From positions 682,001 through 746,000 of the forward strand of contig OZ237763.1 of assembly GCA_965178125.1 (NCBI GenBank): 64,000 nt of DNA, in the 5' to 3' direction. Positions 1 through 64,000 of this stretch are shown here, one piece after another. The position numbers were made by a program, and so were the translations under genes. The notes below the pieces were generated by a model. The model saw nothing but the letters and a program-made list of their open reading frames with translations, had not been told where the DNA came from and did not search any database. This DNA is from Bilabrum cf. latius (taxonomy: Eukaryota). Positions within the stretch are counted from its first letter, which is position 1; each line of letters opens with the position of its first letter.

Positions 1-3000
1 GCCGTTGTCTAGGCCCTGCACGCGGAACTCGCGGTGAGGCTCGATCATGTCCCTGTACCACGCGGGCTTGTCGCCCTGGTACCATGCCACGCGCAGTGTG
101 GACTCGCAGCTGTCGCCGCGCGCCCGCCCCTGGGTCTGCATGAGCGTCAGCTTGCCGTTCTCGAAGCCGTTCCTCGTCTCTGCGTTGGGCCCGATGGAGA
201 AGTCATACTCGTCCGTGTTTCCAGCGCCGGAGATGGCCACGCACCGCTGCGGCTGGTCAGCGGCACAGCTGCCCAGGGGCGCGAAGCCGGCCTCGCAGGT
301 GATCTCGGGGCACAGCACTGCCACACGGAAGCGGATGGTATCAGTGGCGCTGCCATCCTCGGCAACGAGCTGCATCTCAATCTGGTAGCTGCCCGCACCG
401 CCGTCGAAGACGGACGCGTCGGCCAGCACGACCTGCGCCGTGCTGGGCTCGTCACCGTCACCGGGCGTGATGCGGATCTCCAAGCCGTCGGTCTCGAAGC
501 AACCATCCGCTTCACAGGCGCCATCTGTCACGCCGCTGGGCTGCCCGGGCTTGAGGTGCGTGCAGTGGCACGTCAGCACGCCGTCCACAGTCACGGGATC
601 GGGGTGGGAGAAGGCCACAGACGCGCCCACGATGGCGCTGCCCACGGCTGCGTTCTTGCGGATGGAGGCGGGAATGCCGTCCAGGGCGGGCTGGGACAGG
701 ACGACGGGGGCCTCGACCACGTCCAGCACTGTCAGGGTCACGGTCACGGTGTCGGCGTCGGCCAGAGCCACCTTGCCGTCCAGCGCCGCCACGGTCACCG
801 TGACGATGTTGCTGCCCCCGTTGGCCACCATGGCCTCGAAGTCCTCGCCGGAGCCAGCGTAGCTGATCGTGGTGACGCCAGCGCTGGTGCTGATCTGGAA
901 GAGAGCAGCGCTGTCGCCGACCACCTGGTACGTGACCTCGTCGCTCCTGTCGCGGTCCGTGGCATCCAGCTCGCCCAGGACCACCGGGCCAGCCACGTTC
1001 TCCTCGATGCTGGCGGCGATGTCACCGCTCTGGAACTCGGGGTCGAACTCAAGGTTGCGCACGGTGAAGGAGAACCCGATCGAGGCCTTGAGGTTGCCGC
1101 TGTCGGTGGCCACCACGGTGGGGGACTGGGTCTGGGGCAAGCGGACCACGTCCTCGAACGCGATGGGCCCGCCGGTCATGGACACGATGCCCTCTGAGGA
1201 GATGGTCAGCGGGTAGGCGGCCGCGATCTGGTCGGGGATGCGCAGGGTAATGGTGAGAGAGTCGCCCGCGTCCTGGTCACGGAACAAGGCGCTCATGTCA
1301 AGCCCCGAGGAGGACTGCAGGTCAGTGCTCTGCTCGTCCACGCTGAAAGCGATCGAGGAACGGAGCCTCCTCGGCGCCTCGTTCACGTCCTGCACCTCGA
1401 TTCGGATGAGCACGCTGGCAGGCCCCGGGGCGCCAGGGCCCTCATTGGCAAGGTCTGGGTCACCGACCGTAAGCCTGTACACGAACACGTTGCCAGAGGG
1501 ACTCTCGAAGTCGAACCCGTCAGAATTGGAGCGCTGCTCCAGGATGCCCAGGTCGTTCAGGAACTCGACCTGATCCGTGGGCTCGTCGTTGGGGGTCTGC
1601 CCCTGCTGCGGCACGAACTCGATCGACCAATCGATGAAGAGCTGATCGGAGAAACCGTCGGGGTCCCGGAAGATATTGTCCGCGGCTGCGATCTGCAGGG
1701 GGAAATTGGGCACGTCGTTCTCGTCGACCTGGTACACGATGGGCGTCTGCACCCCGGGGATGATCACCACTTGCTCGTCCACGTCCCTGATCTCGATCTC
1801 GAGCAGGGTGGCGGACGAGGCCAGCCGACGGCGGAAGGAAGCATGCCTCTCGGAGTCGCCGCCCAGGCTGGCGAGCCTGCGGGAGGCGGGCTGGTTGTCT
1901 TCCACCACCAGGCGGAGGAGCCTGCGATCCTGCATGTCAGACGATCCGGAGAAGTCTGTCTCGAAGTCGAGGAGGGCGCCGCACCCCTCCCCGCTGGGCT
2001 TGAAGGCCAGCCCGAAGAGACGCCTTGAGGTGCCCGGCGTGTACGCGTCGTACGGGTCATCGGTGACCTCGACCGCCTCCACGCACGCGGAGATGTCAAT
2101 CCCCGACTCACCCTAAAAATCGCACAGCGGCAGGCCATTCTCGTCCGTGCCGTCGTCGCAGGACTGCACCACCACGGTGAGGTCCTCGAGGTCGCCCTCG
2201 TCCGGATCTCCCACGGACAGGGCTCCCTCCATGCGCTGGCCCTCGGAGGGGTTCTCGTCGAAGGCAAGCATGCCAGAGCCCAGCACCTGGGGCGCGAAGG
2301 GCGGCCGGTTCTCGAACACGTCGTTGACGTTCACCACGATGGTGGCAAAGGGCGTTTTGAAGCCGCTCTCGTCCGTGCACGTTACCTTCACGGTGTGCTG
2401 CACCTGGGTCTCGTAGTCAAGAGACCTGCCAGCCGCCACACGCAGGAGCACGGACCGGCCAGGCGACTCGTTCTCCTCCTTGTCCGGGTTGGACGACTCG
2501 CCCAGGCGAGCCTCGAACAGATCGTCGTCGACGCTGCAGGACACCACTTGGTCGTTCTCGTCGGGCTCGCCCACCCTGAGGTAGTTCAGCTCATCGGACG
2601 TAGGCTCGTCCTCTGAAGTGGCGGTCTCGGGGAAAGACACCTGCCCGGTGCGGCGGTTGAAGCGAGGAGCCTCGGGACGGTCCTGCACGGTGATAGGCAG
2701 CACGATCTGGGGGCTCTCGGCGTTGGCGCGCTGGCCCACGGCGGTCGCTGTCACCACGATCTCGAGGTTATTGGGGCACGCCGTCGAGCAGCGCAGGTTC
2801 TGGGCCGCGTCCTCGCCGAACACAAAGAAGCGTCGCAGCTCGGGCAGCCGCAAAGTGGCCGCCCCACCGGGAACGTCGTTGGTGCTGGGCAGGGGCACGG
2901 ATGTCGCCTGGAAACTGCGACTCGTGAGGTCGAGATCCACGGGAGTGCTGTCCGTTGAGTCCCGCAGCCGTAGTTCTGCCGTCAGGCGCACCTCGGGCTG

Positions 3001-6000
3001 TTCTGCGTCCTCAGTCGCGAAGGTGAACGGAGACCCTCCGAAACTCGTGGTGAAGTCCGCGCTGGGAAGGATGCTCAGCCGCCCGTCGGGCCTGGCCTCC
3101 GTGGGCACGTTGCCGATGCCCCGCACGAAGCTGAACTTCCCAGCCCCAGTGCCGGCTTGCTCGAGGATGGCAGCGGTGGACGCACGAAAGCCCAGCTGCG
3201 GGGGGTCCACGAGGTCACGCGCTTTGAAGGTCAGCGGTCCGATGCTCTGTGCCGAGTCCTTGCAGGCCTGTGTCCTCTCCTTGCCCGCGGCGCAGGGCCC
3301 TGACCTCACCACCACGCGGAAATCAAACTGCCTTGAGTCGGCGGGCAGTTCCTCGTAGTTGATGGTCCGCTCCGCCTCCTCCACCCCGGACTCGGGGAAG
3401 CTCACCTCCAGCGAGAAACTGGTGGGGCTGCCCCCTGTGCGGATGCGGCCTGAGACGGGCTTCACCACCACGGTGCCTTCGCTGGACACGTCCGTCACGG
3501 CGGCAGCATCCTCGCCGTCGGTGATGAACGCACCAGCGGGCGGTGCCACGGCGGCAGGCTTGATGTTCAGCAGAGCCTTGCCCGCGTACATACCCCCGGC
3601 AAGGGAAGGACTGCTGTCGCCGTCGAAGACCACGGCCAGCTCAAGGTCCCTGTCACCACCGCCAGTCACGGTGCCCTGCACGCCCGAGAATCGACCCACC
3701 GGCAGCGGAGTGTCATCGCTCACGCGGAACTGCGTGCTGGATCCGAACACCGTGTCGATCTCGGCCAGCGGCTCGCAGGAGATTGCCTCCCCGCGGCCCT
3801 CGCCGCTGTCGCCTTCGGCCTCGAAGCCCTCGGAGCACACGCACGCGGTGCTGTCGGCGTTGGGCTCCGCGTTCTCGTCCGCGTCGGTGCACTGGAAGCA
3901 GGGCACTACCTGGCCGAAATCAGCGTGGTTGATGCTGCCAGACTCGCACTGGTTGCAGGTCGCCGAGCCCTCAAGCGGCTGGAAGCGGCCAGGGGAGCAG
4001 GACTGGCACGCCAGGGCGCCCACGAGCGGCTGGAAGCGGCCGGGAGCGCACGAGGAGCACGTCTTAGTGTCGTCCTCGCCCGCACCGGGCTTGCAGGTGA
4101 AGGTCACGGTGTTGGACAGCGAGACCGTGCCGATGGAGCACAGCACGCCCTGCGTGTCCAGGTTGAATCCGCCCGACGGCGACTCGTCCAGCTCGCCGTC
4201 GCAGGCCACGAGGCGCACGGGTACTTCATCGTCGGTGCTGTACTCGAGCCCGGCGGCGCTGAGGGTCACTGCTCCAGAGGAGCGATCCACGGAGAGGCTG
4301 CTGATGGCGGCGGAGCTGGGCACCTCCACATTGGGGAAGGTCACGTCCTTGCCATGGAGGTAGTAGACCACGCTGCTGCCACTCTCGGGGTCCTCGAAGG
4401 CGGGAGCGGCCGAGCTGGCGATGGTCACCGCGTCGTTGATAGGGGCCTGCACCTGCACAGTGCTGCCAGCGGAGCTGCCTGCAGCCGCGGCCGGTGCCTC
4501 GTTCACGTCGGTGATCTTGAACACGCCCGGGAATTCGAGTGTCTACGACTCGCCGTTGCTGAACTGCACGGTCACCTTGAGGGTGTACTGCCAACCGCCC
4601 TCGGGGAAGCTCTCGAAGTCAAGTGCCGAGGCCTTGGCGCGAATGGCGTCGCCCACATCGTTCACGAACAGGATCCCGCTGTCGTCCCCCTCCTCACCGG
4701 GGACGATCTCCAGGTTGAAGGTGGTCACCGTCACGCCGCACGCCTCGGTGTTGGCAGAGACATCTGCGATCGGCACGCTGGCATCAGGGGAGGCGTCTCC
4801 CGCGGCCGTGAGCTCAGAGCGAGCGGGGATGCTGATGTCGCCACCAGGAGAGGGCTGCACCGCGAGCTGGCCTCCAGCATTCGAGTACGTGATATCGATG
4901 ACCGCAGTGATCACAATAGAGTCGTCACCGCTGGTTGACTCCGCCACCTGGCTGCTGCCGGCACCGTTGCTAGAGCACGTGGCCCCCTCATCGAAAGCAG
5001 GCAAGAGGGGCCCCTGGGCAGCGATGCCAGAGCCAGCCACGGAATCGTCGCCCTGTGCGCTCTCGCTCACAGCGGGCATCTGCATGGGGTCGCCCCAGCA
5101 CTTCATGCCGCGCGCCACGTCGTCGGTCGAGTACAGGGCGCATGCCTGCGTGTTGGTGACCGCCAGCTCGTGTACGACGAGGTCGCCCGAGCCATCAGCG
5201 GTGCCGAGGAACTCGAGGAAGTCGGTCGAGCTGACTGTTGCGGGGACGGGACCGTTCGAGTCGGTCTTGCCTCCCATGGAGGCGAGGGCGGTGGCACCCA
5301 TAGGCAAGGGCTCCTGCACGCAGACTATGCCACCGCGGAATGCAACATCGGGTGCACTAGCAGAGATGGGGGCAGCCGCGAAGCAGGCAGCCTGAGGACC
5401 GGAAGATACGTCGAAGCTATCGAAGTTCTACAGCTGGAAAGCTTGGCCATCCACTGAGGCCCCGAAGGCCTCAATAGAATAGCCGCCCGTGGTGCCATCG
5501 AAGTCGGCTGCGTTCCAGCCCCACCCGCGGCCCAGCCACAGGTACGGGGGGCCGTCCTAGTCGGGATCCATGTTGGCTAGTTGGAAGCGGTTTGCGTAGG
5601 TGCGAGTTCTCAGCGGTTTGGGCAGGAGTCCAGCCGCCTTAAGGTTGTCCCAGTCGCCCCAGCACCTGAGTAGCACGGTGGTGGTGTCCCCGGTGATGTC
5701 ACTGTTGCGCACGCGTGCACACACAGCCGAGTGCAGTGAGACGAGCTCCAGCACCTCGTCTCGCTCGTTCATGACGACTTCCACGGGCTTGGCCTCAGCA
5801 ACCTATAGCACGGGGGAGCTGTACAGATCTCCAGCAACGTTCTCAACGCTAGTGCGTCGCACTATGGGCTGCACGATGCCGGGGGCGGGATCCAGGGCTG
5901 CCTCGTTCTCGTCCTCGCCAAGCCCCTTGCCCACGGCTGCCGACGTGACGCCCCAGCACACCACGCGAGTATCGTCGTAAGTATTGGTTCCCACTGTCTC

Positions 6001-7293
6001 GGGCTCGTAGAGCACACAGTAGTGCAGTGCACCCGCCACGATCTGTGTGGCCTTGCGCGCCGCCAGCTCCGAATCGACGTACGTGCCGATGGGCACCGGG
6101 CCTAGGCCAAGGCTCGGCATACGGGTCTAGGCTGCTGTCTCGCGGCTGTGGTAGACGCCGCTAGGTGAGAACCCCAAAGAAATGGGCCCGAAGCACTGCA
6201 CGTTGCCGAACAGCACGTCGTTCTGGTCGTCGACGATGGAAGGCACCTGGCCCTCCATCAGGAAGCACGAGCCGGTTGTGGTGGAGGCGCCCTCGCCGCT
6301 GAATGTCCGGTGCGCGGGGCGGGTGGTTGGGGTCGAGGGCACCTCTCCGTCGAAGAGGTCCTCGCACTCGTCGTTGAAGCGAGCCTTCTGCCAACCGGCG
6401 CTCGGGCGCATGGCGTTGCCAGCGACCTCTTCGTCATCATGGGAACCCAGCACAACGCTGACGTAGCTCAGCAGGAGATTGCGATCATTATCGTCCTGCT
6501 GCGCAATGTAAGCGTCAGTGTACGGCTTCGGTTCCGCGTAGCAGGTCGGCAAGGATATTTGCCGGGCGGATGTGAACAAGCCTAGCTAGTCCGGACGCTG
6601 CACGCTAATCAGCGAAACCGGTTGCTCCGGAGTACCGAGGTCCTGAACGGACAAATCTGATCCAGTATACGCGCAGTACAGATCGCCTTGAGCCACACCG
6701 CAGATGTGGGCGTGACCGGTCGTGATGCCCTCGAGATCCGTGTCGGAGCCCTTGGTGACAGCAGGCGAATCCTGGATGATCGAGAACGAGCCCTCTGCGT
6801 CATAAGCAGCTGTCACATCGGACTGCGCGCCGCTGGAGAGACCGCAACGAGCTTTCAAATCGTTGGACTGCTTGTGACACCCAAAGCAGTACGTCTGGGC
6901 TTCAGAGCTGGATGATTCTGCGAAACAAGAAGCCAAACGGTAAGGAGGCCTTAGCACCGTGAACGGAGGTACAGTCATAACACAGCCCGCTACAGCAAAC
7001 ATGGTAAGTTATTTTCGAATATCAGAGAAAGTCTTGAGGGCAAGAAGCGGGATAACGAACCGTGGCGCCAAACCACATCACTACGCGTCAAGATGCAACA
7101 ACCCAATACCACTCGATTTTGCACGAGTTCCCGAAAATTATGGCAACTCACGGTCAGTGCGCTGTGCTTGAGAGCAAATAAGTCCATTGGTGGACCTGTA
7201 AAGTCCCTGCCAGCCGCAGGAAGCGCATGATCCGGTCGCCGACACACTCGCAGTACCGAAGGCTGCCAGAACAGCCAACGTGTAAGTGATCAT
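1..7293 (-). CDS. Large secreted/surface protein with cadherin-like repeats and Cys-rich (GCC2/GCC3, ephrin-receptor-like) repeats; 3' end runs off the window
   Basis: ORFs 6586-7002, 6127-6579, 5803-6120, 5557-5784, 4543-5319 and 2113-4524 share one frame, separated only by TAG (6586, 6127, 5803, 5557, 5428, 4543, 2113). The frame stays open to base 1. Cadherin-type motifs: ITDVNEAP, LDYETQ, VNVNDVFENRPPF, DATDRD, VLDVVEAP. CxxCxPGRFQ repeats are present. Predicted first exon from ATG 7293 encodes a signal peptide (MITYTLAVLAAFGTASVSA). Confidence 0.85.
6918..7151 (-). other. Probable spliceosomal intron (may hide a micro-exon)
   Basis: GTGAGT donor at 7151; GCTAA...TTCTTGTTTCGCAG acceptor at 6918. 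The phase-1 join restores the downstream frame. Confidence 0.55.
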
Positions 7294-7546
7294 GGTGAAC
7301 TCTACTGAGCTGAATGGGTAGTAGTGAGCTACTCTAGCAATTTGACTGGCGATTCGACGAATGTCGAAGCAGCGGCAGTCACAGTACTAGGAAGAATGGT
7401 TTGAGTTGGTCCGCTGGAAATAAAATAAACTCTCCTTTCATAGAAATTGCAGTTGGTCGCAAGCAGCGGTCGCAACCACACAGGCAATAATCGGTCCCTC
7501 AACAAGCAGCTCTCACTCGACAATGACTTCCAATATATGTTTCAGA

Positions 7547-10500
7547 TCAGTGCCCACGCCGCCTTCCGCGTTTTCTGGAGGTGCGCACTGCCCCGGCAGC
7601 ATCGTTTCTCTCCTGCGCAATCCGCGAGCGGTCCGTGTGATAGAACTCGTCTAGCACCCCGACCGTGTGCCTAGAATTCAGCCGGCCCATGCCGTGCAAC
7701 CCGATACCCTCCTGCTGCTCGCCAAGCTCTCTTCCACTGAGCAGCCTGCCGGTCCGTACGAGGTCCTCCAGCTTGCGAAGGCGGCTGCCACGCCTCCAGT
7801 GCCTCGCTGTTTCACTCTCGGCGTCGCCACCGCCCGCCTAGCCCAGCCCTGTCCCCACACTATCTCGCGCGTACCCCTTCAGAGCAAGCGAGAAATCCCG
7901 CCTCTTCGCACTTGCACTACGTTGCACCCGTGCCTTCGCCATCGGGTTGTTGGCGGCGGCGGGCCTCTGCAAATCGGACTCCCTCTCCTTCGAGTTCCCG
8001 TCCCGCTCCAGCCTCCTCTGCGCCTCGAACTCCCTCTCCCTCTCCCTCCGGATAGCCTCGGGACTCTCCGGATCTTCCTGCAGGATCGTCCACCAGAAGA
8101 GTAAGAACAGCACGCCCAGGCACGTTATGCTGCCGATCCCGACCACGTACGTGAGCCCGAGTGCCGCCTGCTGCAGCACGTCACCGTACCTCGCCTGCAT
8201 CGTGGGATGCTGCTGAATTGCAGATACAGTGTTGAGACCCACGGCAAGAGCAGACAGCAGTAGAGTGCCTGCTTTGCCCACCCTCTTCCATTCGAACTCT
8301 TCGAGAAAGGGAGCTGCCCACTCGATCGCAACCATGGCAGACAGCAGCACAAAAATGGAGCAAATCCCAGCAAACAGGGCTCGAGTCGGCTCGTTGGGCA
8401 CCCACAGCACCTCAAGACCGGCTAAGCAAAGCAGCACCATCCAGTCAACCACACGCACCCACGCCCTGGAGGCACGGTAATCCCCATCCACAAAGTAGGC
8501 CAGCCGGTGAGTTTGCCGCAGGATCAGCGACCGGTCTCTCACTGTCTCCAGCATCACTCGCGCCATGGCAGGCGACACGTTGACCCCGAACGACTCAATC
8601 TCAGCCTGGAGTGCGGGCAGAGGGCCCGAAGTGGGTGACTCCGCCAGTGCCCTCTGCACGTGGCCGGGTGCACCTGAGCCTCTTTGCGCACGCGGTGCAT
8701 GGGCGGGCGGCTGCCGCGGGTACTCCTTGCTGTCTGACTCGCTCCGTCCCCTGGACTCCTATTGGGCTTCACCCCGCAGCATGCCCTGTTGCGGCCGCTT
8801 CCCCAGCCTCGGGGCTCCCGACCGATACGTGCTCTCCTTCTTCTTTGTCAGCGCCCCGCTTGATCGCATTGGGTTGCTGAAGTGAACTGCGCCTCCGTCG
8901 CTGTCCTGGCTGGAATGGTTCAGCTGCGGCCCGCTCGTGTCCATCCCTTCGGATGCCGCCTCTGTGTCATCTTGATCCGCGAGATAGTCTCGCTTGAGCT
9001 GCCGCACCGAGAGAGATGCAGCCTCGTGGGAGAACGGGCCAGATGTAGGGGTGGCAGCAGCCGAGGACACGCGTTGGCCTGGAGCTGCAGACGCCCTCGC
9101 GCAGCAACCCGTGCTACTTTGCTGTCGCATTTGCTGTTTCCGCTCCTCAGCGATAGCCATGTTGAGCAGGGTCTTGGTCGCGAGCAGCCGTGGAGCGGAT
9201 GGGGAGGCCTCCACTGTGCGGTCCACTTCGGGCACGATCCACAGCAGCAGCACGAGAGGGTACCCCAGGAGAATGAGTAGACCGGCTATGCAGGCCAGGG
9301 CCAGGGCGAGCTAGTGAGGAGCGTCCCGGAAACAGACCACAGTGGGGTCTTTCACTAACAGCAGCACATCCGTGTCTGACGGGTCGTGCCCCAGGCTGGC
9401 GAGGATGCCAGCTTCTAGCGACCCTAGCCCAGCACCAGCACCAGAGGCATTAGGCTCGGTAACGTTGGCGGCTTGATATTCGCTGCCAGTTGAGATGTTC
9501 GCAGCGCTGCCAAGTGCCTCAGGGGGCAGCTGTACGGCATCGACTGCGGACTCGGCCACCTGTGCAAGCGCCATGGGGGTCCTGCAGTCGACTACCTGCA
9601 CGATGGTGGTGCACACGATGGCGTACAGCAGTGACAGTGCAGTCAACAGTCCTCTCGAGGTGATGCCAAGAGATGTGGTTGCGTCGCCTCTGGTTACTCT
9701 GCCCGCGTGAAGAATGCCTTGCTGGCCTGGCTTGAAGCCTGGCGAGCTGCGGCCAGGGCCGCGCGACAGTGGTGATGAATCCGTGCCCACTCGTTTGCTG
9801 GAGCCCATCACCTCTCGCATAGCTGCCGCGGGGGAGGCGGGGTGGGACTGTAGTCCCATACCCACCGGAACCAGGCCTGTCCGCACTGATAGCCCTTGAC
9901 CCTTGCCAGCCGGCCCGTCTTTGCCGGTCTGATGGTGCGCGTGCGACATGGGATTTCGCACGAAGCAGGAAGCGGATGTGTCGCTGGGTGAGGACATGGG
10001 TTCTCGAGAAATCGACTCGGCTGGCAGTCCCGAGGACCACAATGCAGTATACCCTGCGATCCCGATGAAGATAGCCACCCCGAGCACCACCATTTCCTGG
10101 GCCAGCTTGATACTGCCAACGCAGTCAGGGTGCACCAGCGCGGAGCTCTCAAACCGAAACACGTCCAGCATTCGCACCACCGTGTAGTACCACTGGGGCA
10201 GGCCTGGCTGCACCGCCCTGCCTGCCTGCGCCACGGTCTACAGAAGCACGCCAGCGAACAGCGTGAACTGTGCCGTCCTCTTGGCCGCCAGCCCGAGCGG
10301 GATCTCTCGCGCGTATGCCACCGTGCCAACGCCAAGCATGAGCACGATGCAAGCGCCGAGCACACCTCCGCCGTACAGCAGCACTGGCTAGATCAGCAGC
10401 CAGGCAGATGGCGAGGAGGGACACAGCTGGCAGCTGCCATCTGCCTCCGGAAACCTCCCGTCCTCGCACCTCGAGCATCCAGTAGACCCCTGCCTGTATC

Positions 10501-13500
10501 CATACCCACACATAGATGCCTCGCTCTCACTGCTCCAGCCCAGGCATCGCTCCACGGCAGGTGGCTCGCACTGCACTACGAGTCCAGAGTCGGCTGACTC
10601 GGTCCAGTACCCTGGCATTGGCAGTGCCTTGTATCCACCGGGGCACACGGCGCCACCGGGACACGGCCTGCACTCCCCACCGGCACCAAACGCGCACACC
10701 AACCCGGCCTTGACTGCGTCTTCATTCGAACAGAGAGCCCCTGGCTCAGGATAGCCCACGCACTACTCCACGTACTCGATTCCGCCCCTCAGTACGAGAG
10801 CAGTAAGGCCCCTTGGACTCCCAACGACGCCCTCACCGGTGAATGCTACCTACAGGGAGGTGCCAGATGCGCCATGATCTAGCGCGAAATCCTCGGTGCC
10901 TGGCTCAAATGGAGCGAGAAGCACGCACCCACCGAGCTCAAACGATTCATTGAGCCCGCCTGTGGAAAGTTTCCACTCTCGGTCTCTGTCCTGCATCGCA
11001 CATAAATCGTGTAGCAGCGACATGGTCCGGCTGTCCGCGAGCACCCGAGTGACATTGGCCCCAGATGGTTGCACTTGCAGCTCCCTTGCGGCTCGACTAG
11101 GTGCTGGAGATTCCTGATTAGATTCGGTATCGAATCCCGGTTCAAATCGATGACGTATGGATGCCCAAGGGGAGGAAACAGGGGCATGGCCGGCATCACT
11201 TCGCACAGGGGGGCTCGCAATTAGTACAGACCGTGCCGGACAGGCGTCTGCTGCGGCTCCTCCACCGCAAGCAGCACCTGCATCCGGCACGCGCACCCTC
11301 GCTCCGTCCATACTGTCCACTACTTGCACCACCTGTGCTTGCACACCCCCTACAAACACGAGCGAGTCATACGAGAAACACGGCACTCTGGTAACACCGT
11401 CAGTAGACATGGGACATGCCAGCGTGACCTCGGCAGACCCACTAACCACAAGGCTGGGGCCAAGCCAGGCGGCCCTAGTAGAGTCATCAGTACTCGCAGC
11501 CCGGAGGGCCTTTTGAATAGAATTATCTATCGATTCAGGGCCGCTTTCAGACAACTAACCATTCGAATTGTCCTGCAATCGTCGGCTGCTTTCATCTGAA
11601 TCAGGCAGAGCATCCGTTGACCCATCACCGGAGCCAGAGCTTCCCCACGCGGACAGATAGCGAGAGCTCCTTCCAAGAATGGCAGCGGCAGAACCGGGTG
11701 CAGGAGTGTCTTCCGTTGCACCGTCTGTTTCTGCGCCCCACACAGCGTCAGGAAGACGTGTGAGGATGTCGCTAGCCTGCGGCCAGCGCACCGGCCTTGC
11801 TGTCACTGGCACGCTCATTGCGAGAGGCTGCTCGTACACAGCGCCGCTCGGTGGACCTGGGAGTGCAGCCAGATCAGACGGTAGCAGCACGCGCTGATCT
11901 AATTCTGCCAATAACGAGGCAGCAGCTGCCTTCTAGGTCCCCACCATCACGCAAGTGAGCCATCCCCGGCCATGCGCGGGTTCCCTGTCTCTCGGCCATC
12001 GATCGGGGTCCCCCTGGCCTCGATTTGCCTCCGTTTGCAGCGACACGGTCAATGTTGCTCCCTGCTGCTGGTCGTTATCACCGTCATTGGCGCTGGTCCA
12101 TACCTCTGCATCTCTTGTCAGTGCCTGTACTGACGGCTTCGCCTCATGCGTGACTAGCCCAGTGGGATCAACCGAATGCCCCGCGCAAGCCAGTACAACC
12201 GCTTCATCGGCGGCAGGGGGTACTGGCACGCGGATGTGAAACGCCGGGGCAGAGCCAGCTGCAACTGACAGTGCGCTGCTGGACGTTGCGTGAATAGCCA
12301 CTCCAGCATCCGAGTCCCGCTTGCCAGGGTACAAATCAAGGAGAGATGAGGCAGCGAACATAGTGCGGTGCGAGCCCGCTTCGTTCGCCCTACTGGCTAG
12401 CTCAGCCTCAGACAGCCCGGTCACCACATCGACAGCATCAATCGGGGCACCCAAAGACGTGGACTCAGTCGGTGAGGTCAGCACCGCTAGCGATGTGCAA
12501 GCAGCCACTGATAGATCCACAGGCTCGCCTATCACAAGGGGTGAAGACGCGCGCCCGTCCAGCGCGGCTGTGAAAGCCCCTGGCAATGCCAACCGCATGG
12601 CACCTTGGCCTGGCACCTCCCCGGAGAACGGAAGCACCGTCAGCTGCGTTGACAATTCAACGCACACGGCGGATGACCCCACAGGTGCTTGCTGGTCCAG
12701 TGCCTGAAGCGCAGGCATTCCCACGAGTGGCCTTGCCTCCAGGGCCCGTTGCTCTCCCAGAATCGCACGTGCGTCCATCAGGGCCGTCCAGTCTGACGGA
12801 GGCACGGGAGGTACAAAGGCAGTTATGTTGAGCCCACGCTGTACAGATGCAGCTGCGGTCCCTGCAGCAGCTGCTGGTTGCTCTAGAATGTGGGCAGTGC
12901 TGCGCAGGTCGCTCACCCTGCCAGAGCCACCGCTCACCCGCACTCCAAGCTACGCACTCGCAAGCCGCGCAGGCAACCCACTCACTGTCCAGTCATCTTG
13001 TGACCCAGTCAGCACATGCATCAAATCTACCCGCAGGGTATTCAGCACACCTATGGGGTTGGATAGATCCGCTGTCTGGAATACCAGAGACACGTTCACA
13101 ACTGGTGGGAGCCACCCGATCGATGCAGCGGCCCCGTCTCGGTCATTTGAGCCTGCAGTAGCACCCAGGGTGGCAGCAGCAGCTGCCGGAGCGCCGCTTG
13201 AGTCACGATGGTGATCTTGCTGCAGAACTGCGCCCGAGCAGATCCTAGTGGTGATTGCCATTCTCGGCCCGCACGCGGCTGTGGATCCGCTGATGGGAGG
13301 CAGGGGGTGAACGCCCTTGCATTCATGCGACGCACCCAATCGTGGGACCTCGGCCAGCGAACCTTCAGCTGCCTGTGCAGCTCTCGCGGCCCCCATGGGC
13401 CAGGTGCACTGGGGACCCTGGTCCAGGTATACGGTGATCGATGCGGGTTTGCCATACAGTCTCACATCTGGGCTTGCCACGGCTATTCCACGCAGCTAGT

Positions 13501-24691: not shown

Positions 24692-24965
24692 GGTTCACTG
24701 ATTGGTCTAGGTGCCCGACGAATAGCAGCGCCTGGCGTCACAGAGGTCGCAATGCTGATCAGACGAGGTTCATTGCACTCCAAAGCAACGATCGCAAACC
24801 ATCAATAATTCCCGCTTGCTGCTAGTGGAATGCCACATCTTTCTGCCGGAGTTCGTTCGTCGCGGTTTGTTCCGGTGTAGCAGCTGTGACCTGGACTGGT
24901 GAGCGACAACATCGGGCTCGTCTTGTGCAGTCTTTGCGTGCTCTGTCGGAATTATGTGCTCATCA
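24692..24965. promoter_or_regulatory. Short divergent intergenic region, candidate bidirectional promoter
   Basis: 274 bp between head-to-head start codons (24691 minus, 24966 plus). No specific motif identified. Confidence 0.35.
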
Positions 24966-26876: not shown

Positions 26877-27031
26877 AGGGTAATTTGAACCGTTGCATCG
26901 TTCGCACACTTGGTGGGCGTTGGGGCTCTCGCTTCGCTTGCACCACGGAACCTTCGGCATGCTTCGTTTGAACGAGAACTCAAGTTCGACGCGTATTATC
27001 TCACGGTTGTTGTTGATCGATCCCACTAGCT

Positions 27032-37932: not shown

Positions 37933-38425
37933 AGTTGGTGAGGCCAGTAATGTCTCTGAGATTGAGGTCGCGCGGTGGGCGCAGGACCCGCTCGAGGTGC
38001 AGGCTCAGATGCGACGTAGTGATGCGAAGGAGAGAGAAAGAGCGACTAGTGATGAAGAGCAGGAGCGGCGGCGACTCGGGGTGGGCGAGGTGGGAGGGCG
38101 GAGCAGAGAGAGAGGGCGAGAGGGGGGGGGGGGGGGGGTTGGGGGCGAAGCAGAGAGGGAGGGGGCGGCAGTTCACCAAGTGGGGATGAAATAGAGGAGG
38201 AAAAGATGATTGGTGGGGTCATCGGGCTGATACGGCGGATTGGAAGGGGGAGGCACAGGCCGGGCAGGTGGAGGTACGGGCATGTGTGTGACGAGTGGCT
38301 TGGATCAGGGGGATCGGATCACCCGACCACATGCGGACGAGGAAGTTGGGAGGTCACAATTGGACTTGAGCGGCAAACATGCCGTGTGCTATTCGGGCGC
38401 TGAGGGGCAGCGCTCGCCAGTTTTT
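37933..38425. repeat. Dispersed ~490-bp repeat 'X', copy 1 (uninterrupted)
   Basis: Colinear similarity to 53138-53250 + 54223-54474 + 56130-56209. Starts AGTTGGTGAGGCCAG, has a purine-rich middle, and ends in the hairpin GCGCTG-AGGGG-CAGCGC followed by GCCAGTTTT. Confidence 0.85.
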
Positions 38426-43022: not shown

Positions 43023-43172
43023 TTCCCAAGGAGATTTTTACTTATATGCTACTATCTATATAAGGTGTACATGCCTGGTGATCTCATCTCCAGGTCCATG
43101 GAAGCCTAGCGAACGTTCCCTGACTGCAAAACCAAATCCAGTGACTTATTTTTTGTTGTTACACCAGTATTC

Positions 43173-48497: not shown

Positions 48498-49697
48498 TCA
48501 CCTGCCCTCCACACCACCCACCATCTCATACCCGGCAGGCACTGGCCCCAGACAGGCCGGCCTCTCCCACACCGACCTGTCCGTCCTCGCGTTGTAGTAG
48601 AACAGGTGCTCCTCCTCGTCTTCGTGCGCGCTCCACATGCTAGCGTCCTGCTCGGGGTCATACGGGGCCTCCTCACCACTGGATCTAGATCTAGCGGGGT
48701 GGTGTGACGAGTGATGTGCGCTGCCGTTCGATGCACCCTGGATCGCGTGCTCCAGCACGAGGCGGTCGGACCGGCCGGGGACACCACCGTGCGATGCACA
48801 TACCACAGATGAAGATGCGTCTATTGCGGAAGCCCCCGCCCGACCTGCCACATCCCCACCAGCCGTAGCACTCGTCACACCGTACCCCGCCCTCCTCTCG
48901 GCCGCCTCCTGCAGCCGCTTGGCCTCTCGCTCCTGCGCCTGCACCCGCTCCCTGGCGGCGTGCAGCTCCGTGGCGACCGGCATCGCGTGCCTCCTGAACG
49001 CCTCACTCGTCACACGGAGCACGGCCAGCTGCCATCCCTCGTACTGGCAGTCGAGGTCCACTGGTTCGTCCCACTGGGTCTTGCCCGTGTGACGATTGTG
49101 GTAGTACAGCAGGCCTGTGGAGCTCGACTGGTGGATAGACCACGCGGGAGGAGAAGAAGCAGCTGGACCTGGACCAGGAGCCGAGGAAGCCTGCATGCTT
49201 GATGCTGCTGCTGCTGCTATATCTAGTGAGACGCCGGCGGATGCACCTTGGGACGCCTGCTTTGAGTCATCCGTCCCTTCACTCGTCACACCGCGCTGCT
49301 GCTTGAGCCCCTGTCCGATACCACTCGTCACACCCAGCCCGCGGCCAGACTCGGAGCGCGAAAGAGACGAAGACGAGGACGAGGCTGATCGCCCGGCCTG
49401 GGCCAGTAACGGCTTAGTCCCAGGGGTCGATGCACTCGTCACACGGCTAAAGCGACTGCCGCCGCCGCTCGACCTGCCCGTGCCCGACCCGCTATTACTC
49501 GTCACACCGCCGCTCCCCCGCACGGCCTCGGCGAGGGGCGAGTAGACGCAGGGGCCCTGCGGCATGCGCCTGCCACTCGTCACACCGCCGCCCCCGATGC
49601 TCCGGCTGCTTCCGGTGCGCGGCAGCACCATATCCGGATGGGCCGCACTCGTCACACCAACGGGCGCGCTATGCTGCTGCTGCTGCTGCTGCTGCTA
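48498..49697 (-). CDS. Protein with two WW domains; 5' end not found
   Basis: PPAWSIHQSSSTGLLYYHNRHTGKTQWDEP and MWSAHEDEEEHLFYYNARTDRSVWERP; ends at TGA 48498. The frame extends upstream into a (CAG)7 run with no nearby ATG. Confidence 0.75.
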
Positions 49698-49742
49698 CAG
49701 TGACAGGGACAGGGAGCCATGCGGCTGCGATTGTAACGCGCA

Positions 49743-56385: not shown

Positions 56386-58435
56386 TCACACGGTGCCGTA
56401 CTGCACCTGCCTTGCGCCGGCTCCTCTTCCAGTCGACCTGACACCATTTCCTCCCCCGCTCGCCTTCGACAGCAGCGGCGACCCGGAACCCAAATCTCCA
56501 TCCTCCCCCTCCCCCTCTCCCTCCTCAAGGCCATCCGAGCCCCCACTCGTGTCCAGCACATCGTCGCTCGAGCAGCCATCCGGCACCAGGGCGCTGAAGA
56601 CACCCCCGCCCCTCGCTCCGGCGGCACCAGCTGCCAGCAGCCCGCGCCCCCCTTCCCCCTTGCCTCTGCCCACCATGCTGATGCCGCTGCCCGCCCTCGT
56701 CACCCCGCCGCGCCTGCGCCCACGCATCCCCCTCTTGCCCTCGTCCTCCTCGTCTTCGTCATCGTCCTCACCCCCTTCATCCTCGCCCTCTGCGCATCCC
56801 CTCACACTCGCCCCTGCCAGCCCCGACCCCCCTTGCCCACCCCCCTCTCCATCTTCCTCATCGGAGTCCACCTCAACTCCCAGCAGCTCCTCCGGTGTGG
56901 AGGCCTCCTTCAGGCACCGCTGGGCCCACTCTGTTCTCGACCAAAAGTACCCGCCCACAAGCGCGGCTGCGTTGAACCCCGCGATCACCCACAGCTGCCA
57001 GTTCACCTCGAGGATGGCGAAGAAGAACACGATCACGACGAACTTGGGGATGGATATGGCCCACCCGCCCCAGGTCCCAAATGGCACGGCGAACGGCCTC
57101 CTCAGGGCGGGCTTGGTGTGCTTGAGGTAGAGGAAGGAGGCGATCTCGAGGAGCAAAGAGACGTTGTTGCTCGCGGTGTCGATCACAGCCAGCTCCGAAA
57201 ACGAGAAGGACATCAAGAAGGCCACGAACACGGCCTGCGCCAGGATGGCGGGCACCGGGGCCCTCCCCGGCCCGACCCTCCATCCCAGGAACCGCGGCAC
57301 CATCCCGAAATCTGCCATGCGCTGCAAGGCCCTAGAGCTTGTGGACATGACGGCGTTGAATTCCCCCAGCACGGAAAATGAAGCGGCCACCACCACCCAG
57401 ATGCCCAGCCACGGGGCGATCTCTCGGGCGATCTTCGCGAATGACCCGTCGTCCCACTCGTCATAGTCCCGCTCCACCCCCGCGCCCACGGCCACAGGCA
57501 CCACGTAGTTGGCCACGATGATGATGGAGGCGATGCCGACGGCGTACGGGTATGTGCTCCTTCCGTCCTTGACCTCGCCTGCGATGCAGCCCAGCGAGTC
57601 CCACCCCTGCATGCTCCACAGGAGGGCTGCGATGAAGGGGGCCCACTCGATCTCGCCCCTCGAGTGCCCCACGCTGCCGAGCTGCGGGGGCGCCAGGAAG
57701 GGCTCGACGCAGAAGGGGGCGAGCACGAAGAAGGTGAACCCGATGGAGGTCAGGGCCACAATTTCCAGCCCCCGGCAGTTCAGAGCCACCACGATGGCCA
57801 GCGCACATGCCTTCAGGATCCACTTCTGCACCCCGCCCTCGGCCCACGGCCACACCTGGGCCACGTACTCCGCGAAAAGCACCGGGTAGATCGGAAGGTC
57901 GAAGAGATTTGACAGCAAGGAGTTGGCTCCGTTGATAAATCCCCAATACGGCCCAAGCGATTCGAACACCCAGGTGATGTACCCGCCGTTGCGAGTGTAG
58001 ATGGTGCTCAGCTCAGCTGCGGGAAGCGTCTCGGATGGGATGGATTGCAAGGAGATTGGAAGTCCCAGCCCACGCGCGGTAACAAACTGCAGTCACAATA
58101 CTAGCACAACCGCGTGCTACGCGCTCACCCGTCATAAACCCCTGCGGAAGGCCCCAAACGACCGCCAAGGCAGCAACGCCGATTATGGTAGGAAGCGGGC
58201 CAGCTGCACCTACCGCAGCTTCAATACCAAACGGTCCTCCAGTGACAGCCTAGAATGCAATGAATGCAAGACTAAGTGCTGCAACAGTTCGCGCAGGAGC
58301 CGCCCCAGTCACATCCAGCACGGACGAAAGCACCTCCTCAGCTTGCGTCGGCTTCTCAAGCGTCTTAGAGCCGGGCAACGACCTTGCACCGCTAAGTGGC
58401 GCATCATGCGAGGGCCCAACACTAGTTTGAGCCAT
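56386..58435 (-). CDS. APC-superfamily amino acid/polyamine permease (plant LAT/PUT-like), ~645 aa; intron 58017-58128
   Basis: F*AVTGGPFGIEAAV, VWGLPQGFMTA/ELST..NGGY..WV, GWDSLGCIAGEVKD, SSRALQRMADFGMVP, LRRPFAVP. TAG at 58250 lies in TM1. A GTGAGC...CCCGCAG intron fits in phase; ends at TGA. Confidence 0.9.
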
Positions 58436-58953: not shown

Positions 58954-61900
58954 TCATTTCTCCATCGACCGCTGCACCTCGGCTGCCGCAGTACGCAGCG
59001 ACTCGACCTGCCTGGCAAGCTTTCCGTACGCATCGCTGTCCTCCTCGTCCGAGACGTTTCTCGTAGCACCAGAACGCGCGCCCGCGATAATAGGTGCTCC
59101 TAGTGTCTCCCTGTCGGCCTGGCTACTTCCCTCGCCCCTCACCGGGCCCTCCATGGGAGGACCCCTTGGCGAGGGCGTGGAAGACGAGGGGGCGGGGGAT
59201 GGGCCTGCCTGGAATCGGCTCACGGGACCCGCCTCTTGGAGCGGCCCAAGGGCAACAAGCTTGCCCTGACCCTTACCCTGCCCTTGGTCCGCCCCCCGAT
59301 CGCCCGATGCCTGTCCCTGCCCCTGCCCCTACCCCTCGCGCAGCCCCGACCGGCCGCCGCCCCCCTCCTCCTACTTCTGCCCCCCGTCCCCACTCTCCCT
59401 CTTCTTCCTCTGTTCCCTGATGGACCTCATGAGCGCATCTGCCTCTGCCAGCGCGTCCTGCGCCCTGGCCAGGTGCGCCCTGCGGCTGGTGGACAAAGCC
59501 GATTCCATGCGAGCAGAGGCATCCAGCAGCACCTGCTCGATGATCTCGTCAGACACCGGGCCTGGGCCTGGGCCTTGGTATGGAGATTGGGATGAGGATG
59601 GGGCACCCTGGGGCTGTGGCGGTGCTGCAGGCACCACAGTGTCTGCGTGGTCCATTGCGCCTGACTTCTCGACCTCCACGCTGCTAGCACTGGCTTGACT
59701 ATCGCTGCCCTTGCCCTTGCCATTGCCATTGCCATTACCATTGCCCTTGCCATTGCCCTTGCCCATGCCTCGAACAACGCGCCGCCCCGGCATGGAGCCA
59801 GCAGGAGGCGGGTCCCTGGCGATCACGTCTCGGGGCTACCTGCCAAGCGCACGCAATGGTGACGAGTGCCCCGAGTCCCCTTGCCGCCTCCCCTCGCCGT
59901 CCTGTGCCCCCCCCCCTCCCCCTCCTCCCAGCCCCAAAGCAACAGAAGCCACCGTCTCAGAGGCGCTTGCATCGAGCGCCCGCATGCCGCGGGGAGACAC
60001 CCCAGCCCGCTTGGCGCTCCGAGCAGCGAGTCCGCTCCTCTTCATCTGCTTCTGTTTCTGTTTCTGCTTCTGCCTCTCCTTCTTCTTACGGAGCCCCTTG
60101 ACGAGCTTCCTAGACCCGTTGAACATGAGCCTCTGCTCGTTCTGCCTGGCCTCCCGGGCCTCCTTGGCGCGGATCTCCCTCGCGCGCTGGGCCTTGCGCT
60201 CACCGTACGAGGCCACCCGGGGAACAAGAGGGGGAGGGGGGGACCGTGGGCTGGACCGACCAGAGTGGGAAGACTTGCTGCCCCTGCCACCGGCCCCGCG
60301 AGCGGAGGACCGGGAGCGACGGAAGGGCGACGCCGGGACGGGGCTGCGTCCCGGGGCGGGGGCAGCTGTGACAGCGGACCACGCCGCGGCGCCGCCCCCA
60401 GCTCCCTTCCGGCTTCGCTTGCGGCGCACGCCGCCGCGGCCGCTGGCTCGCGCGCGAGGTGACGACTCGGCAAGCAGTTCCGCAGCCAGCCGCGGGGTGC
60501 TTGCGGAACTTCGAGGGCGCCGCGCGCTGCTGCTCCTGGACGAGGCGGCGGTCCCCCTGCTGGCGAGCATGCGGGCGGACAGGGGCGAGGAAGCGGAAGC
60601 GGCCCCGTCGAAATCGGCGGCTCCGGGGGGCGCCCCCTCGGCGGCTGCGGCTGCTGCCGCCCTGTACTCCTCGGCGGAGATGCCATGCAGGTGCACCGCG
60701 GGGACATCCCCCGCCCCCGCCCCCGCCTTGGGGTCACCCCCCGACCACTCCCAGGGCATGCCCCTGGCCGAGGACTCACGGAGGTAAGGGAAGGGCCCCG
60801 ACTCGGGGACGGGCCGCCAGGCATCGCGCATGCCGGACGCACCGGCCGCCAGCTCCGAGCGGCGAGCGGCCATGGGCTGCGTTCGGCTGTGATCCAATGA
60901 ACCTGCAGCCCCGGCACCAGCCCCGGCACCAGCCCCGGCACCAGACCCAGACCCAGACCCAGAAGCAGGCCGCAGTCGGCTCCCGCTGGCCTGCCGCAGC
61001 ACCCGCTCTCGCAGGGCCGCGGTGCCCGAGAGGTGCGCTCGAATCTCCGCCCCCTGTGCCCCCCGGGGTGGGGTCACATCCCGCGGGGGATCCGAACGGG
61101 TCGGCCGCCCGCTGGTACCCCCACCCCCAACGCCTCCACCTCCTGATACCCCTGGACTGCCAGACAGCGACAGCCGCGTCCCTCCGCCGTGCTGCCTGCC
61201 TCGCGGCGGGGTGGGCGTGCCCCTGCCGTCCCTCAGCTGCTGCTCCCTCTCTGCCCTGGCCTGTTCCGCCGGACTCGACCCCTGCATGGCCGGCCCCATC
61301 CCGGCGGGACCCCTGGAGCCCGGCCTCCCCGAGGACGTGTCCACGTTCCACGGACCCACAGTGTCCCTGCCAAGCGGGCGCTGCACCCCCGCCACCCCGG
61401 GGCTCAGCCTCTCCGCTTCTTCCCTCTCGTGCGCCAGCGACCGACCTGCGGCCTGCTTGGCCATCCACTCCCTCCCTATCTCCTCCCTGGTCCGGGGCCT
61501 AAAGTCCAGCCCAGCGTCCTGCTCCTCGACCAGCCTCCTGGCCTTACGCAGCAGCTCCTGTTCCCTGCGGTGCACCCAGTCCTGGTTCTCGCGGTACAGC
61601 CTCTCGTTGTCGTCCGTCACCCGCCGAGGCACCTCCCTCAGGCCCAGCCCCTCGGGCAGCGGCTCGGGCCGGGGGACCTCCAGCCTGCTGCCCGTCTGTG
61701 CCTGTGCCTGAGCGGGCGTCGACAGCAGGCCGAACTGCCCCAAGCCAGAGCGGTCACCAGCCCCAGCTCCTGCCGATCCGCTAGCTTCCACACCGCTCCT
61801 CGCCCCGACCTCCCCTGCGGAAGGCTGGTCACCTTCATCCCCCTGACCCCCATTGCCACCGGGCGGCACAGGCCCCCTGGGGGGCTCCCTCCTCGGCAGC

Positions 61901-63394
61901 AGCCCGCTCAGCCTGTGCATGGCCCTCGCCGCGCCCTTCCTCCTCGAAGGCGAGTCCTCTCTCCTGGAGGCACCTGCCCTGGCCGCCGTCGCCACGGTGC
62001 TGCCCATGGCGTGGGCTGCCAGGGCAGGTGAGCTATGCCTGCCTTCTTGCGGTGAGGGGCGCGATGGCGGTGGGGGGCTGGAGGACGAGGCAGAGGGGCT
62101 CCCAGCCCAGCCGCCCTCTCCCTTTCCCCGTTCTACCCCTGCCCCTGCCCCCTCCCCCTCGCTCTCCCCCTCGCCCTCCCGCATGGCCTGCCTCAGCATC
62201 GCCTCGGCAGCCGCCCTGCCCTCGGCTTCCTGCGCCTCCCGAAGGCCTCCCTCCTCGTCCATGTGCCACCGCCAGTCTGGGGAGGACGGGGCAAGGGGTT
62301 GATCGTCAGCAGCAGCACCACCGCTAGCTGTAGCACGGGCTGCAGGCGATGGCGACGGGCTGTGGCTCGCAGGGTGTAGGCTCGTAGGGCGTGACGGCGA
62401 TGCTGCTCCGCCCCCGCTGCTAGCTTCACTGGGCGCAGCCACCCTCGGCAAAACCGCCCCCGAGATGCCCTGCGATCCCTGCCCGTGCCCGTGCCCGTGC
62501 CCCTGCTTGGCCAGCCACTGCCTCCTCATCTCTACAGAGGCACGGAGACTGCTCGGGCTGTGCCGGAGGAGGGCCTGGGAACCGGATACCACAGTGGCGG
62601 GAGATGTGATGGGGCTGCCCTGCTGCTGCTGCTGCTGCTGCTCTGCGTTGCTTCTGTGCCCCTGCGAGGGGCTCGGTGCAGCGCTGCTTGAGCTCGCAGC
62701 GGTGCTGCGGCTGCTTCCGGGCCCAGCCGGATACCGCCCCTCCGAAGCAACGAGATCAGGATTTGTCTTTCCGTTGTGCGCTTGGTGCGCTGCACTTCTC
62801 GCATACTCCTATACGTGAGACTTGCCAGCAGATCCGGGATCAGTCCCGCCAGATGTGGCCCTCTCGGGGTCTTCCTCGACCCAGGCGGATTCCAGCGCCG
62901 CCTCCTTGGCAAGACCAGCCCTCTACTACTCTCTTTTGCTGTCAACGCTGTCTCTCCAACGCACCTGTCTTTGATAAAACTCCGCCGCTTCTCCATTGCT
63001 GATCTTGCTCGCTTTCACAGGAACTGCGTTTGGCGCGTCGTCTGCAATACCCCTGTCCCTATCCGCATGCCTGCGTAATGTATCCATCTTCTGCGCAGAG
63101 TGACAGGCCCGACCACCGATAGCAAATCTGACAGGCTTGAGCGAACACTTATAAAAATGCAAACCAGCCATTCGTGCGCAAACACTAGCAACAACTTGAA
63201 CGACGTTCCTACCATACAATCCGAATACTTCTTGTGCAACATAATCTCACTTTTGCAATGTACGCACTGTGCTTCTGTTGCCGCTGCATGAATCCATCAA
63301 GGCTGGGTGAGTCGGCGGAACCATCTTGCCCAGAGTGGTTTTCCTGGACATTAAATCCAAGATGGCCAAAATCGTGGCCAACTGAACTTGACAT
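58954..63394 (-). CDS. Large low-complexity/coiled-coil hypothetical protein (~1,426 aa); probable intron 63091-63250
   Basis: ORFs 59836-62592, 59371-59826 and 58954-59223 share one frame, with TAG at 62926, 62923, 62809, 59836, 59371 and 59329; ends at TGA 58954. AAA|GTGAGA...CTGCGCAG|AAG phase-0 intron. Confidence 0.7.
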
Positions 63395-63632: not shown

Positions 63633-64000
63633 ATGCGAGGCGGCTGTTGCACTTCGGCCAGCCTTGCCCTTCTTATTGTGGGCGTAACGGCATCATCCGC
63701 GACACGAGAAAGCGTTCTGCGACAGGTTAGTGACCCTCCAGTGGGATGTGTCGTAGATTCGCTGTTCCCTGAGCACCAAACTCTGGTTGGTGACCGCTCC
63801 ATGAGAGTTGTCACTCAAATTGCGTGCTCAAGTGGCGACGCAGACGCTGCAGCCCTATGCATTGACATATTTCGCGGTCCTAACGCTACAGATACTACCA
63901 GACACGATGCCTGGTCCGAAGGCGAGCACCTCGGTAGGTCATGCAGGAGCGGAGCACCCTCTCCGAGTTACCCAGCAAGCGACGAGAAGCCGATGGATAG
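63633..64000 (+). CDS. Probable 5' part of a secreted protein, running off the window
   Basis: Open frame from ATG 63633 to the window end, starting MRGGCCTSASLALLIVGVTASSA (signal-peptide-like). Confidence 0.4.
   Translation, partial: MRGGCCTSASLALLIVGVTASSATRESVLRQVSDPPVGCVVDSLFPEHQTLVGDRSMRVVTQIACSSGDADAAALCIDIFRGPNATDTTRHDAWSEGEHLGRSCRSGAPSPSYPASDEKPMD

Follow-up and report, generated by a model that had tools for sequence, protein, structure and literature searches.

The 64,000-nucleotide (nt) stretch of the Bilabrum cf. latius assembly GCA_965178125.1 (contig OZ237763.1, positions 682,001 to 746,000 of the forward strand), referred to here as the window, was analyzed with respect to its genetic code. 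The results indicate, with a probability of roughly 0.88, that the window stems from the nuclear genome of a GC-rich eukaryote in whose cytoplasmic translation UAG is read as glutamine (Gln), and UGA, as the main terminator, and UAA terminate. This code is formally NCBI table 15.

The G+C content of the window ranged from 0.55 to 0.72. With the standard stops, the longest open frame was 990 codons, and with TAG as a sense codon the longest frames became 5715, 2336 (leaving the window), 2195, 1455, 1430, and 1249 codons. In the controls, TAA alone as sense left the longest frame unchanged at 990 codons, and TGA alone as sense gave 1091 codons and inflated the short frames generally, since no stop triplet is more frequent than TGA in the GC-rich DNA of the window. 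The frames thus bear out the original prediction for this DNA, that UAG is a sense codon throughout.

Eleven large frames, comprising 17,516 codons, contained 101 in-frame TAGs (about 100 had been predicted), two of which sit in the opposite-strand overlap of a WW-domain frame and an FG-GAP frame (49737-50150) and may be non-coding. The two off-frames held 118 and 116 TAGs. Internal TGA was absent from the large frames, compared with 284 and 339 in the off-frames, and internal TAA was likewise absent, compared with 26 and 52. As TAG is about as frequent in frame as off frame and TGA and TAA are excluded, TAG is tolerated, and TGA and TAA behave as true stops. Ten of the frames end inside the window, nine with TGA and one with TAA, as had been predicted, and UGA is the main terminator and not a sense codon. 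TAG was found in 10 of the 11 large frames, the exception being a permease exon; the claim that nearly every gene is split by TAG therefore holds for the large frames and not for every gene piece. TAG accounted for about 13% of Gln codons (101/790). The G+C content at third codon positions (GC3) was poor at telling coding from non-coding frames in the window.

The longest frame belongs to the following gene.

7547..24691, minus strand: giant gene for an FG-GAP-like secreted or membrane protein; single exon of about 5714 codons with 42 in-frame TAGs

The ATG of the giant gene lies at 24691..24689 and its terminal TGA at 7549..7547. The 42 TAGs of the frame (7547..24694, minus strand, 5715 codons) were spread from residue 40 to residue 5619, and the frame lacks both TAA and internal TGA. 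On the same strand, the two remaining frames contained 110 and 143 TGAs and TAAs together, with TAA alone numbering 12-13 in each, and the probability that the frame is open by chance is about 10^-48 to 10^-63.

The same pattern was seen beyond the window. JGI metagenome contigs were scanned with a paralogue of the retroelement described below, which yielded 26 loci of 51-65% G+C in six contig sets; all were reached via one mobile element and are not an unbiased sample. Copies of the element itself (L001-L005), 62-69% identical, occurred in six sets of these contigs. Reading TAG as sense gave the longest frame in 20 of the 26 loci and at least doubled the standard longest frame in 16; in L001 the longest frame rose from 350 to 1482 codons, with 21 TAGs. 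Read-through of TAG restored genes for a cis-prenyltransferase, a GH3 enzyme, a DUF5107 plus TPR protein, an M20 peptidase, a protein kinase, a C2/FerI protein, and an ankyrin protein. Accordingly, the TAG pattern is a trait of an environmental lineage and extends beyond one assembly.

The amino acid assigned to UAG

The amino acid was assessed from the alignment of TAG codons with homologous residues, mainly in the retroelement and two host genes, the giant gene and an E3 ligase gene.

38670..43037, minus strand: retroelement open reading frame (ORF) with a reverse transcriptase (RT) domain, RVT_1; 1455 codons, 23 in-frame TAGs, no TGA or TAA before the terminal TGA
41290..41292, minus strand: TAG codon of retroelement residue 582, in an invariant RT Gln column (coordinate computed from the frame start at 43037)
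24954..26876, plus strand: RMND5/GID2-like E3 ligase (CTLH/CRA plus RING, from Pfam), ending with TGA

The density of TAG was highest in the retroelement (23 in 1455 codons, compared with 42 in 5715 in the giant gene). As originally predicted, its RT domain (residues 458-689) continues across TAGs, five of which lie inside it at residues 486, 582, 596, 647, and 661. A HMMER search with the ORF against 1.84 billion representatives gave 2512 matches, and the best 150 were aligned. The column of residue 582 was Q in 136 of 137 homologues of less than 50% identity, the remaining one being a gap. Among the distant RT homologues, Q was also the commonest residue at position 596 (Q 60, H 31, R 12), and the other TAG columns were variable. 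Over all distant RT columns (796 cells), Q was found 234 times and leucine (Leu) 36 times.

The host genes gave a similar result. The TAGs of the RMND5-like gene are at frame residues 29, 82, 201, and 650 (numbered from 24903). Its protein had a single match, P0003 (78% identical), whose start corresponds to the first Met past TAG201. At TAG650, which lies 7 codons before the TGA, P0003 has Q; the conserved C-terminus runs past this TAG, in line with the predicted continuation of the RMND5 domain. Relatives of the giant gene came from a search with residues 850-2400, as a search with residues 1-5000 gave only a 42%-identical WW protein. The orthologue fragments P0156, P0158, and P0159 (80-87% identical) carry PF01839/PF13517, their alignments cross TAG sites, and the residues at the TAGs were Q, E, Q, Q, and Q; P0159 terminates exactly before TAG2363 of the window. 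Altogether, the host-gene relatives of 78-87% identity had Q in five of six TAG cells and E in one.

Codon pairs were then counted between the element of the window and four related metagenome copies. The partners of TAG (61 cells) were Gln codons in 22, TAG in 16, glutamate (Glu) codons in 6, and glycine codons in 6. The partners of CAG (142 cells) were Gln in 75, TAG in 21, and Glu in 9, and those of GAG (237 cells) were Glu in 146 and Gln in 12. The partner profile of TAG is like that of CAG and unlike that of GAG, which makes TAG a synonym of CAG. On the related contigs, whose genes were aligned to solved structures, TAG column 522 of the GH3 enzyme was Q in all four alignments shown (three distinct enzymes, as the first two chains are near-identical) and column 115 in three of four; TAG column 13 of the M20 peptidase was Q in two of the three alignments shown. 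On these comparisons UAG very probably encodes Gln, as originally proposed from the in-frame TAGs: the RT column, the close host-gene relatives, and the CAG-like codon pairs all point to it.

Some of the comparisons weigh against this assignment. In close retroelement fragments, the residue at the 10 TAG cells was Q in four, E in two, K in two, R in one, G in one, and L in none. The 51%-identical giant-gene relative P0157 has M, Q, S, and P at TAGs. In the cis-prenyltransferase gene of locus L015 (224-2905, minus strand), the TAG at residue 609 (column 70) falls on E in all five solved homologues shown, the only conserved column at odds with Gln. In addition, part of the Gln signal comes from the retroelement, in which CAG-to-TAG decay could mimic Gln.

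Glu would be the main alternative on this evidence. A code in which UAG is sense and means Glu has parallels in peritrich ciliates and Blastocrithidia, where UAR is Glu, and it would account for the prenyltransferase column, for the one E among the six close host-gene cells, and for the two among the 10 close retroelement-fragment cells. The prenyltransferase case, however, belongs to a relative and not to the window. The invariant RT column and five of the six close host-gene cells are Q, TAG is paired with Gln or TAG in 38 of 61 cells (Glu in 6), as CAG is in 96 of 142, whereas GAG is paired with Glu in 146 of 237, and GH3 column 522 and M20 column 13 favor Q. A Glu assignment is accordingly improbable.

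Two other candidates for the signal were rejected. Leu, the meaning of UAG in the rhizarian exLh and the TARA phyllopharyngeans, is excluded by the alignments, as it was found in none of the 10 close-fragment cells, none of the six close host-gene cells, and none of the 137 sequences of the invariant RT column. That the Gln signal merely reflects a dead, decaying retroelement was rejected since the element has 23 TAGs and no TGA or TAA within 1455 codons, and the host genes agree.

Elsewhere in the window, the translated frame at 53368-54090 (minus strand) resembles by eye the C-terminal part of the retroelement ORF and may be a fragment of a second copy.

Termination codons and TAG in RNA-like contigs

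The only frame that ends with TAA is that of the following gene.

34143..37892, plus strand: Armadillo-repeat protein frame; 5 in-frame TAGs, sole frame ending with TAA (37890-37892)

If both UAA and UAG meant Gln (NCBI table 6), TAA would look like a stop merely through its rarity in GC-rich DNA. This is the commonest nuclear variant according to passages of PMC11687900, TAA is indeed rare window-wide (220 and 156 occurrences on the two strands), and a single gene ends with it. The ratio of CAA to CAG in the window is 130:559, and the same ratio for TAA and TAG predicts about 23 in-frame TAAs, yet none was observed in the 17,516 codons. The giant gene, which is supported by the RNA-like contigs described below, has no TAA either, against the 12-13 of each off-frame. 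Reading TAA as sense in addition to TAG merged no large frames; the extensions reached only an intron, an upstream spacer, or a tail past the TAA of the armadillo gene, and this tail is Arg/Gly-rich, enters a poly-G tract, and does not look like coding sequence. TAA as sense lengthened the longest frame in 4 of the 26 related loci, and by little. UAA is therefore best read as a rarely used stop, and its reassignment together with UAG is very improbable. TAA and TGA are kept out of the frames and close them, in accordance with the prediction that UAG alone is reassigned.

It could also be supposed that UAG is ambiguous: a suppressor or near-cognate tRNA would decode it in most cases, and in some genes it would still act as a context-dependent stop. 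Context-dependent stop/sense codes occur in Condylostoma and karyorelicts. A terminal TAG would be invisible in frames that are read through TAG, and low-level termination would be invisible in assembled contigs. Nevertheless, all ten frame ends inside the window are TGA or TAA, the 42 TAGs of the giant gene extend over almost its whole length (residues 40-5619), and the RMND5-like gene has a TAG only 7 codons before its stop, with a conserved C-terminus after it and Q in the relative. We regard ambiguity as highly improbable.

The TAG codons were also followed in public sequencing runs, using the features below.

7414..7546, minus strand: 3' untranslated region of the giant gene; poly(A)-like end at about 7414, with contigs of X8 and X5 ending at 7414 and 7417
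7152..7293, minus strand: exon 1 of a cadherin-like gene; ATG at 7293, signal-peptide-like, 142 nt
6918..7151, minus strand: spliceosomal intron of the cadherin-like gene, GTGAGT...CAG, 234 nt; skipped in RNA-like contigs and kept in DNA run X1
1..6917, minus strand: exon 2 of the cadherin-like / ephrin-receptor-like repeat gene; leaves the window, 7 in-frame TAGs

The segment 15000-24900 was complete in runs X1-X4 (one sample) and, in runs under three other organism labels, almost complete (X5) or partial. Runs X1, X5, X7, and X8 were compared over positions 7000-26999. Run X1 was DNA-like, with one colinear piece of 26.8 kb at a flat depth of about 15 that reads through 6918-7151. The contigs of X5, X7, and X8, in contrast, jump from 7152 to letters that match 6888-6917 exactly, skipping 234 nt. 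The X8 contig ending at 7414 has a run of eight T's, corresponding to poly(A) on the minus strand, 133 nt past the TGA of the giant gene. The pieces of X5 leave out the space between two genes, breaking at 24813 and resuming at 24869, and their depth varies from 5 to 97. An RNA nature of the X5, X7, and X8 contigs can be argued from the joint at which the intron is spliced out, the variation in depth, the ends at gene borders, and the one 8-letter T-run.

Among the X5 pieces listed, 40 of the 42 TAGs of the giant gene and all four of the RMND5-like gene were covered, with no differences. X7 and X8 each covered five of the 42, and four of four and three of four in the RMND5-like gene, respectively; this gene was recovered without differences at 24869-26913 in X5 and 24930-26916 in X7. 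Seven places varied between runs, none of them in a TAG codon, and the same places also differed in the DNA run. The sole GT..AG joint within 7000-26999 was the intron at 6918-7151. As the TAGs are unchanged in spliced RNA-like contigs, both removal of TAGs by splicing and full U-to-C editing to CAG, which the original prediction had named as observations that would overturn it, are contradicted. The remaining notion that the TAGs are untranslated, as pseudogenes, assembly errors, or sites of splicing or editing, can be dismissed, since only TAG interrupts the frames, DNA run X1 and the RNA-like contigs agree at the TAGs without a difference, no GT..AG joint other than the intron and no variant touches a TAG, and the pattern recurs in related contigs of six metagenome sets.

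Further points of the unfavorable kind concern termination, the runs, and the decoding machinery. The role of TAA as a stop is known from one terminal case and from its absence from frames, in 64 kb only. The label of X5 is "RNA? (probably DNA)", those of X7 and X8 are guesses, and none of the runs listed for the segment is recorded as RNA. Assembled contigs drop rare variants, so that partial editing or occasional termination at UAG lies below their resolution. No tRNA gene was found in the window or in the 26 related loci, Rfam scans of the window and of the loci gave no matches, no eRF1 gene lies in the window or the loci, and no rRNA gene lies within the 64-kb window; the decoding machinery is thus deduced.

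In the 3' part of the giant gene (window 8450-10250), both DNA and RNA-like contigs showed alternative joints, extra depth, and a few variant letters. The joints at 8550-10128 skip 1030, 1574, and 472-475 nt, and none is GT..AG. Three of the four non-GT..AG joints were also present in the DNA run, and the fourth was at most 3 nt from one in that run, which suggests repeated or variable sequence.

The public runs that contain the 15000-24900 sequence without a difference are filed under four organism labels; in some of them its source may be a symbiont, a parasite, a contaminant, or a partner in co-culture.

Decoding, known codes and lineage

Reading of UAG and not UAA as Gln would require a tRNA-Gln with a CUA anticodon, as can be deduced from passages of PMC5304391 and PMC11687900; this anticodon is expected because only CUA reads UAG while ignoring UAA. 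Such a tRNA would most simply be a mutated copy of tRNA-Gln(CUG), one mutation away (passages of PMC5304391), and recognition of UAG by eRF1 would be lost or weakened, with recognition of UAA and UGA kept (same source). TAG codons would then have spread mainly through CAG-to-TAG transitions. Capture by Gln is the commonest direction in which stop codons are reassigned.

The code type itself has already been described. As reported in parts of PMC11687900, UAG alone means Gln in Iotanema spirale, Protocruzia tuzeti, Hartmannula sinica, and Trochilia petrani, Leu in the rhizarian exLh and some uncultivated ciliates, and serine in Scotinosphaera; the original list of such cases (Iotanema, a rhizarian, and some ciliates) was roughly right and incomplete. 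Iotanema spirale (Fornicata) resembles the window in that UAG alone is Gln and UAA and UGA are stops. According to passages of PMC5304391, its code was deduced from in-frame UAGs of transcripts at conserved Gln positions, a tRNA-Gln(CUA) and an altered eRF1 are the predicted mechanism, and its primary terminator is UAA, whereas nine of the ten frames of the window end with TGA. Iotanema is also an anaerobic metamonad known from a transcriptome, and the window is GC-rich genomic DNA with a retroelement and giant adhesion-type genes. Hartmannula sinica, Trochilia petrani, and Protocruzia tuzeti likewise share UAG = Gln and the retention of UAA as a stop with the window (parts of PMC11687900). 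In five phyllopharyngean ciliates, the same source gives UAA as the end of 86.9-98.3% of genes, UGA as the least used stop, and a G+C content of 27.4-53.6%; the window differs from them by its 55-72% G+C, its mainly TGA ends, and its long multi-gene stretch with a GT..AG intron.

The rhizarian exLh (Sainouroidea, from Lygus hesperus) is a non-ciliate in which, as in the window, UAG alone was reassigned, and it was found inside data labelled as another organism, which recalls the four labels of the window sequence; it differs in that UAG is Leu and termination is mostly by UAA (56/71) (passages of PMC5304391). Table 6 shares UAG = Gln with the window and differs in that UAA is Gln as well. Its users include many ciliates, ulvophyte green algae, hexamitin diplomonads, Streblomastix, and Amoeboaphelidium, as cited in parts of PMC5304391 and PMC11687900. 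The name "genetic code 15" is also given to the code of some phages (part of PMC9523058). These phages have the same formal table and are bacterial viruses, whereas the window contains eukaryotic domain families and a spliceosomal intron, and its RNA ends are poly(A)-like.

A full-text search, with most subscription journals and supplements outside its reach, found no paper on a GC-rich, UGA-terminating eukaryote with UAG = Gln. It is tentatively proposed, with slightly less than an even chance of being correct, that the change of UAG to Gln seen here arose independently and has so far escaped description, in a protist lineage that is GC-rich, poor in introns, outside the ciliates, and also present in environmental metagenomes. 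The genome style fits the earlier description as GC-rich, intron-poor, and not ciliate-like, with about a dozen genes, a retroelement, and a GT..AG intron in the 64-kb stretch. The leads to a lineage conflict. The nearest Atlas cluster of the permease is oomycete-dominated. Of the 20 retroelement relatives considered, six have a named source (Cymbomonas 4, Closterium 1, and a Syntrophales metagenome-assembled genome 1), and all five eukaryote-named ones are green algae. For the RMND5 piece, the Atlas gave family-level clusters only, in which Chordata, Ascomycota, and Streptophyta were commonest. Neither "green alga" nor the "stramenopile" suggested originally was adopted, because retroelement kinship is a weak guide to host lineage.

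Nuclear codes that split UAG from UAA are few and bear on how eRF1 and suppressor tRNAs separate the two codons. The UAG-to-Gln-only lineages in the literature found all prefer UAA as a stop (parts of PMC5304391 and PMC11687900). If the proposed reassignment is true, it would be the first UAG-only case with UGA, not UAA, as the dominant terminator, at odds with the idea of UAA as the fixed preferred stop. A GC-rich, UGA-terminating lineage would widen the known conditions for the UAG-to-Gln change and would argue against simple codon-capture accounts based on AT pressure. In practice, gene calling with the standard code fragments the genes of the window, and public protein collections contain fragments only: P0003 begins just past a TAG, and P0007, P0013, and P0015, 98-99% identical to the element of the window, have 80-153 residues. 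For most of the large genes, any annotation of the assembly based on table 1 or 11 is therefore wrong. The existing genome assembly would allow the tRNA(CUA) and eRF1 to be read directly.

Other genes and features of the window

27325..33912, plus strand: frame of a CAP-Gly plus long coiled-coil protein; 6 in-frame TAGs, ends with TGA
45452..47278, minus strand: 608-codon frame, no Pfam match; 4 in-frame TAGs, ends with TGA
48498..50150, minus strand: WW-domain protein frame (two WW domains), ends with TGA
49737..52561, plus strand: FG-GAP repeat membrane protein in two frames (49737-51968 and 51833-52561); 2 in-frame TAGs
56386..58092, minus strand: amino-acid permease (APC) exon, 568 codons; PF13520 at 2.7e-31, no TAG, ends with TGA
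58954..63246, minus strand: low-complexity frame of 1430 codons, no Pfam match; 6 in-frame TAGs, ends with TGA

Three of the gene assignments made originally were not confirmed in the form given. The frame taken for DCTN1 shows only a CAP-Gly domain and a coiled coil, and the solved structures closest to it are those of CEP350, CLIPR-59, and dynactin alike; as the frame lacks the initial half of the CAP-Gly domain, an upstream exon is probably present. For Atx1, an HMA-type match was absent from the ORFs scanned with Pfam (20 small ORFs, picked by length and GC3 from the gaps between large frames, where such ORFs are numerous, with 85 of at least 90 codons in 43-56 kb alone), and a motif scan with a metal-binding pattern was also negative. 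The permease domain had been described as continuing across TAGs, of which the 568-codon exon has none.

In the cadherin-like gene, Pfam detected PF00028 (5e-07) and PF07699 (2.6e-04) in the open frame 1..7008, and the reading frame is preserved across the joint of exons 1 and 2. The two TAGs of the WW-domain frame fall in its upstream part, which overlaps the FG-GAP gene and may be non-coding. The second frame of the FG-GAP protein (51833-52561, plus strand) has a further FG-GAP repeat and a transmembrane-like stretch, and the two frames are probably joined by an intron near 51.8-52.0 kb or separated by a frame change.

In the spacer past the TAA of the armadillo gene, a poly-G run of about 20 bases was observed at 38120-38140. 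At 43887-44997 (plus strand), ankyrin-repeat-like peptides were seen by eye in successive frames, where Pfam was silent at E <= 0.01; the peptides may belong to a gene that is split by introns or has decayed. At 55330-55791 (plus strand), a 153-codon frame with three TAGs gave a weak match to an OTU cysteine protease (E 0.004, below the Pfam cut-off).

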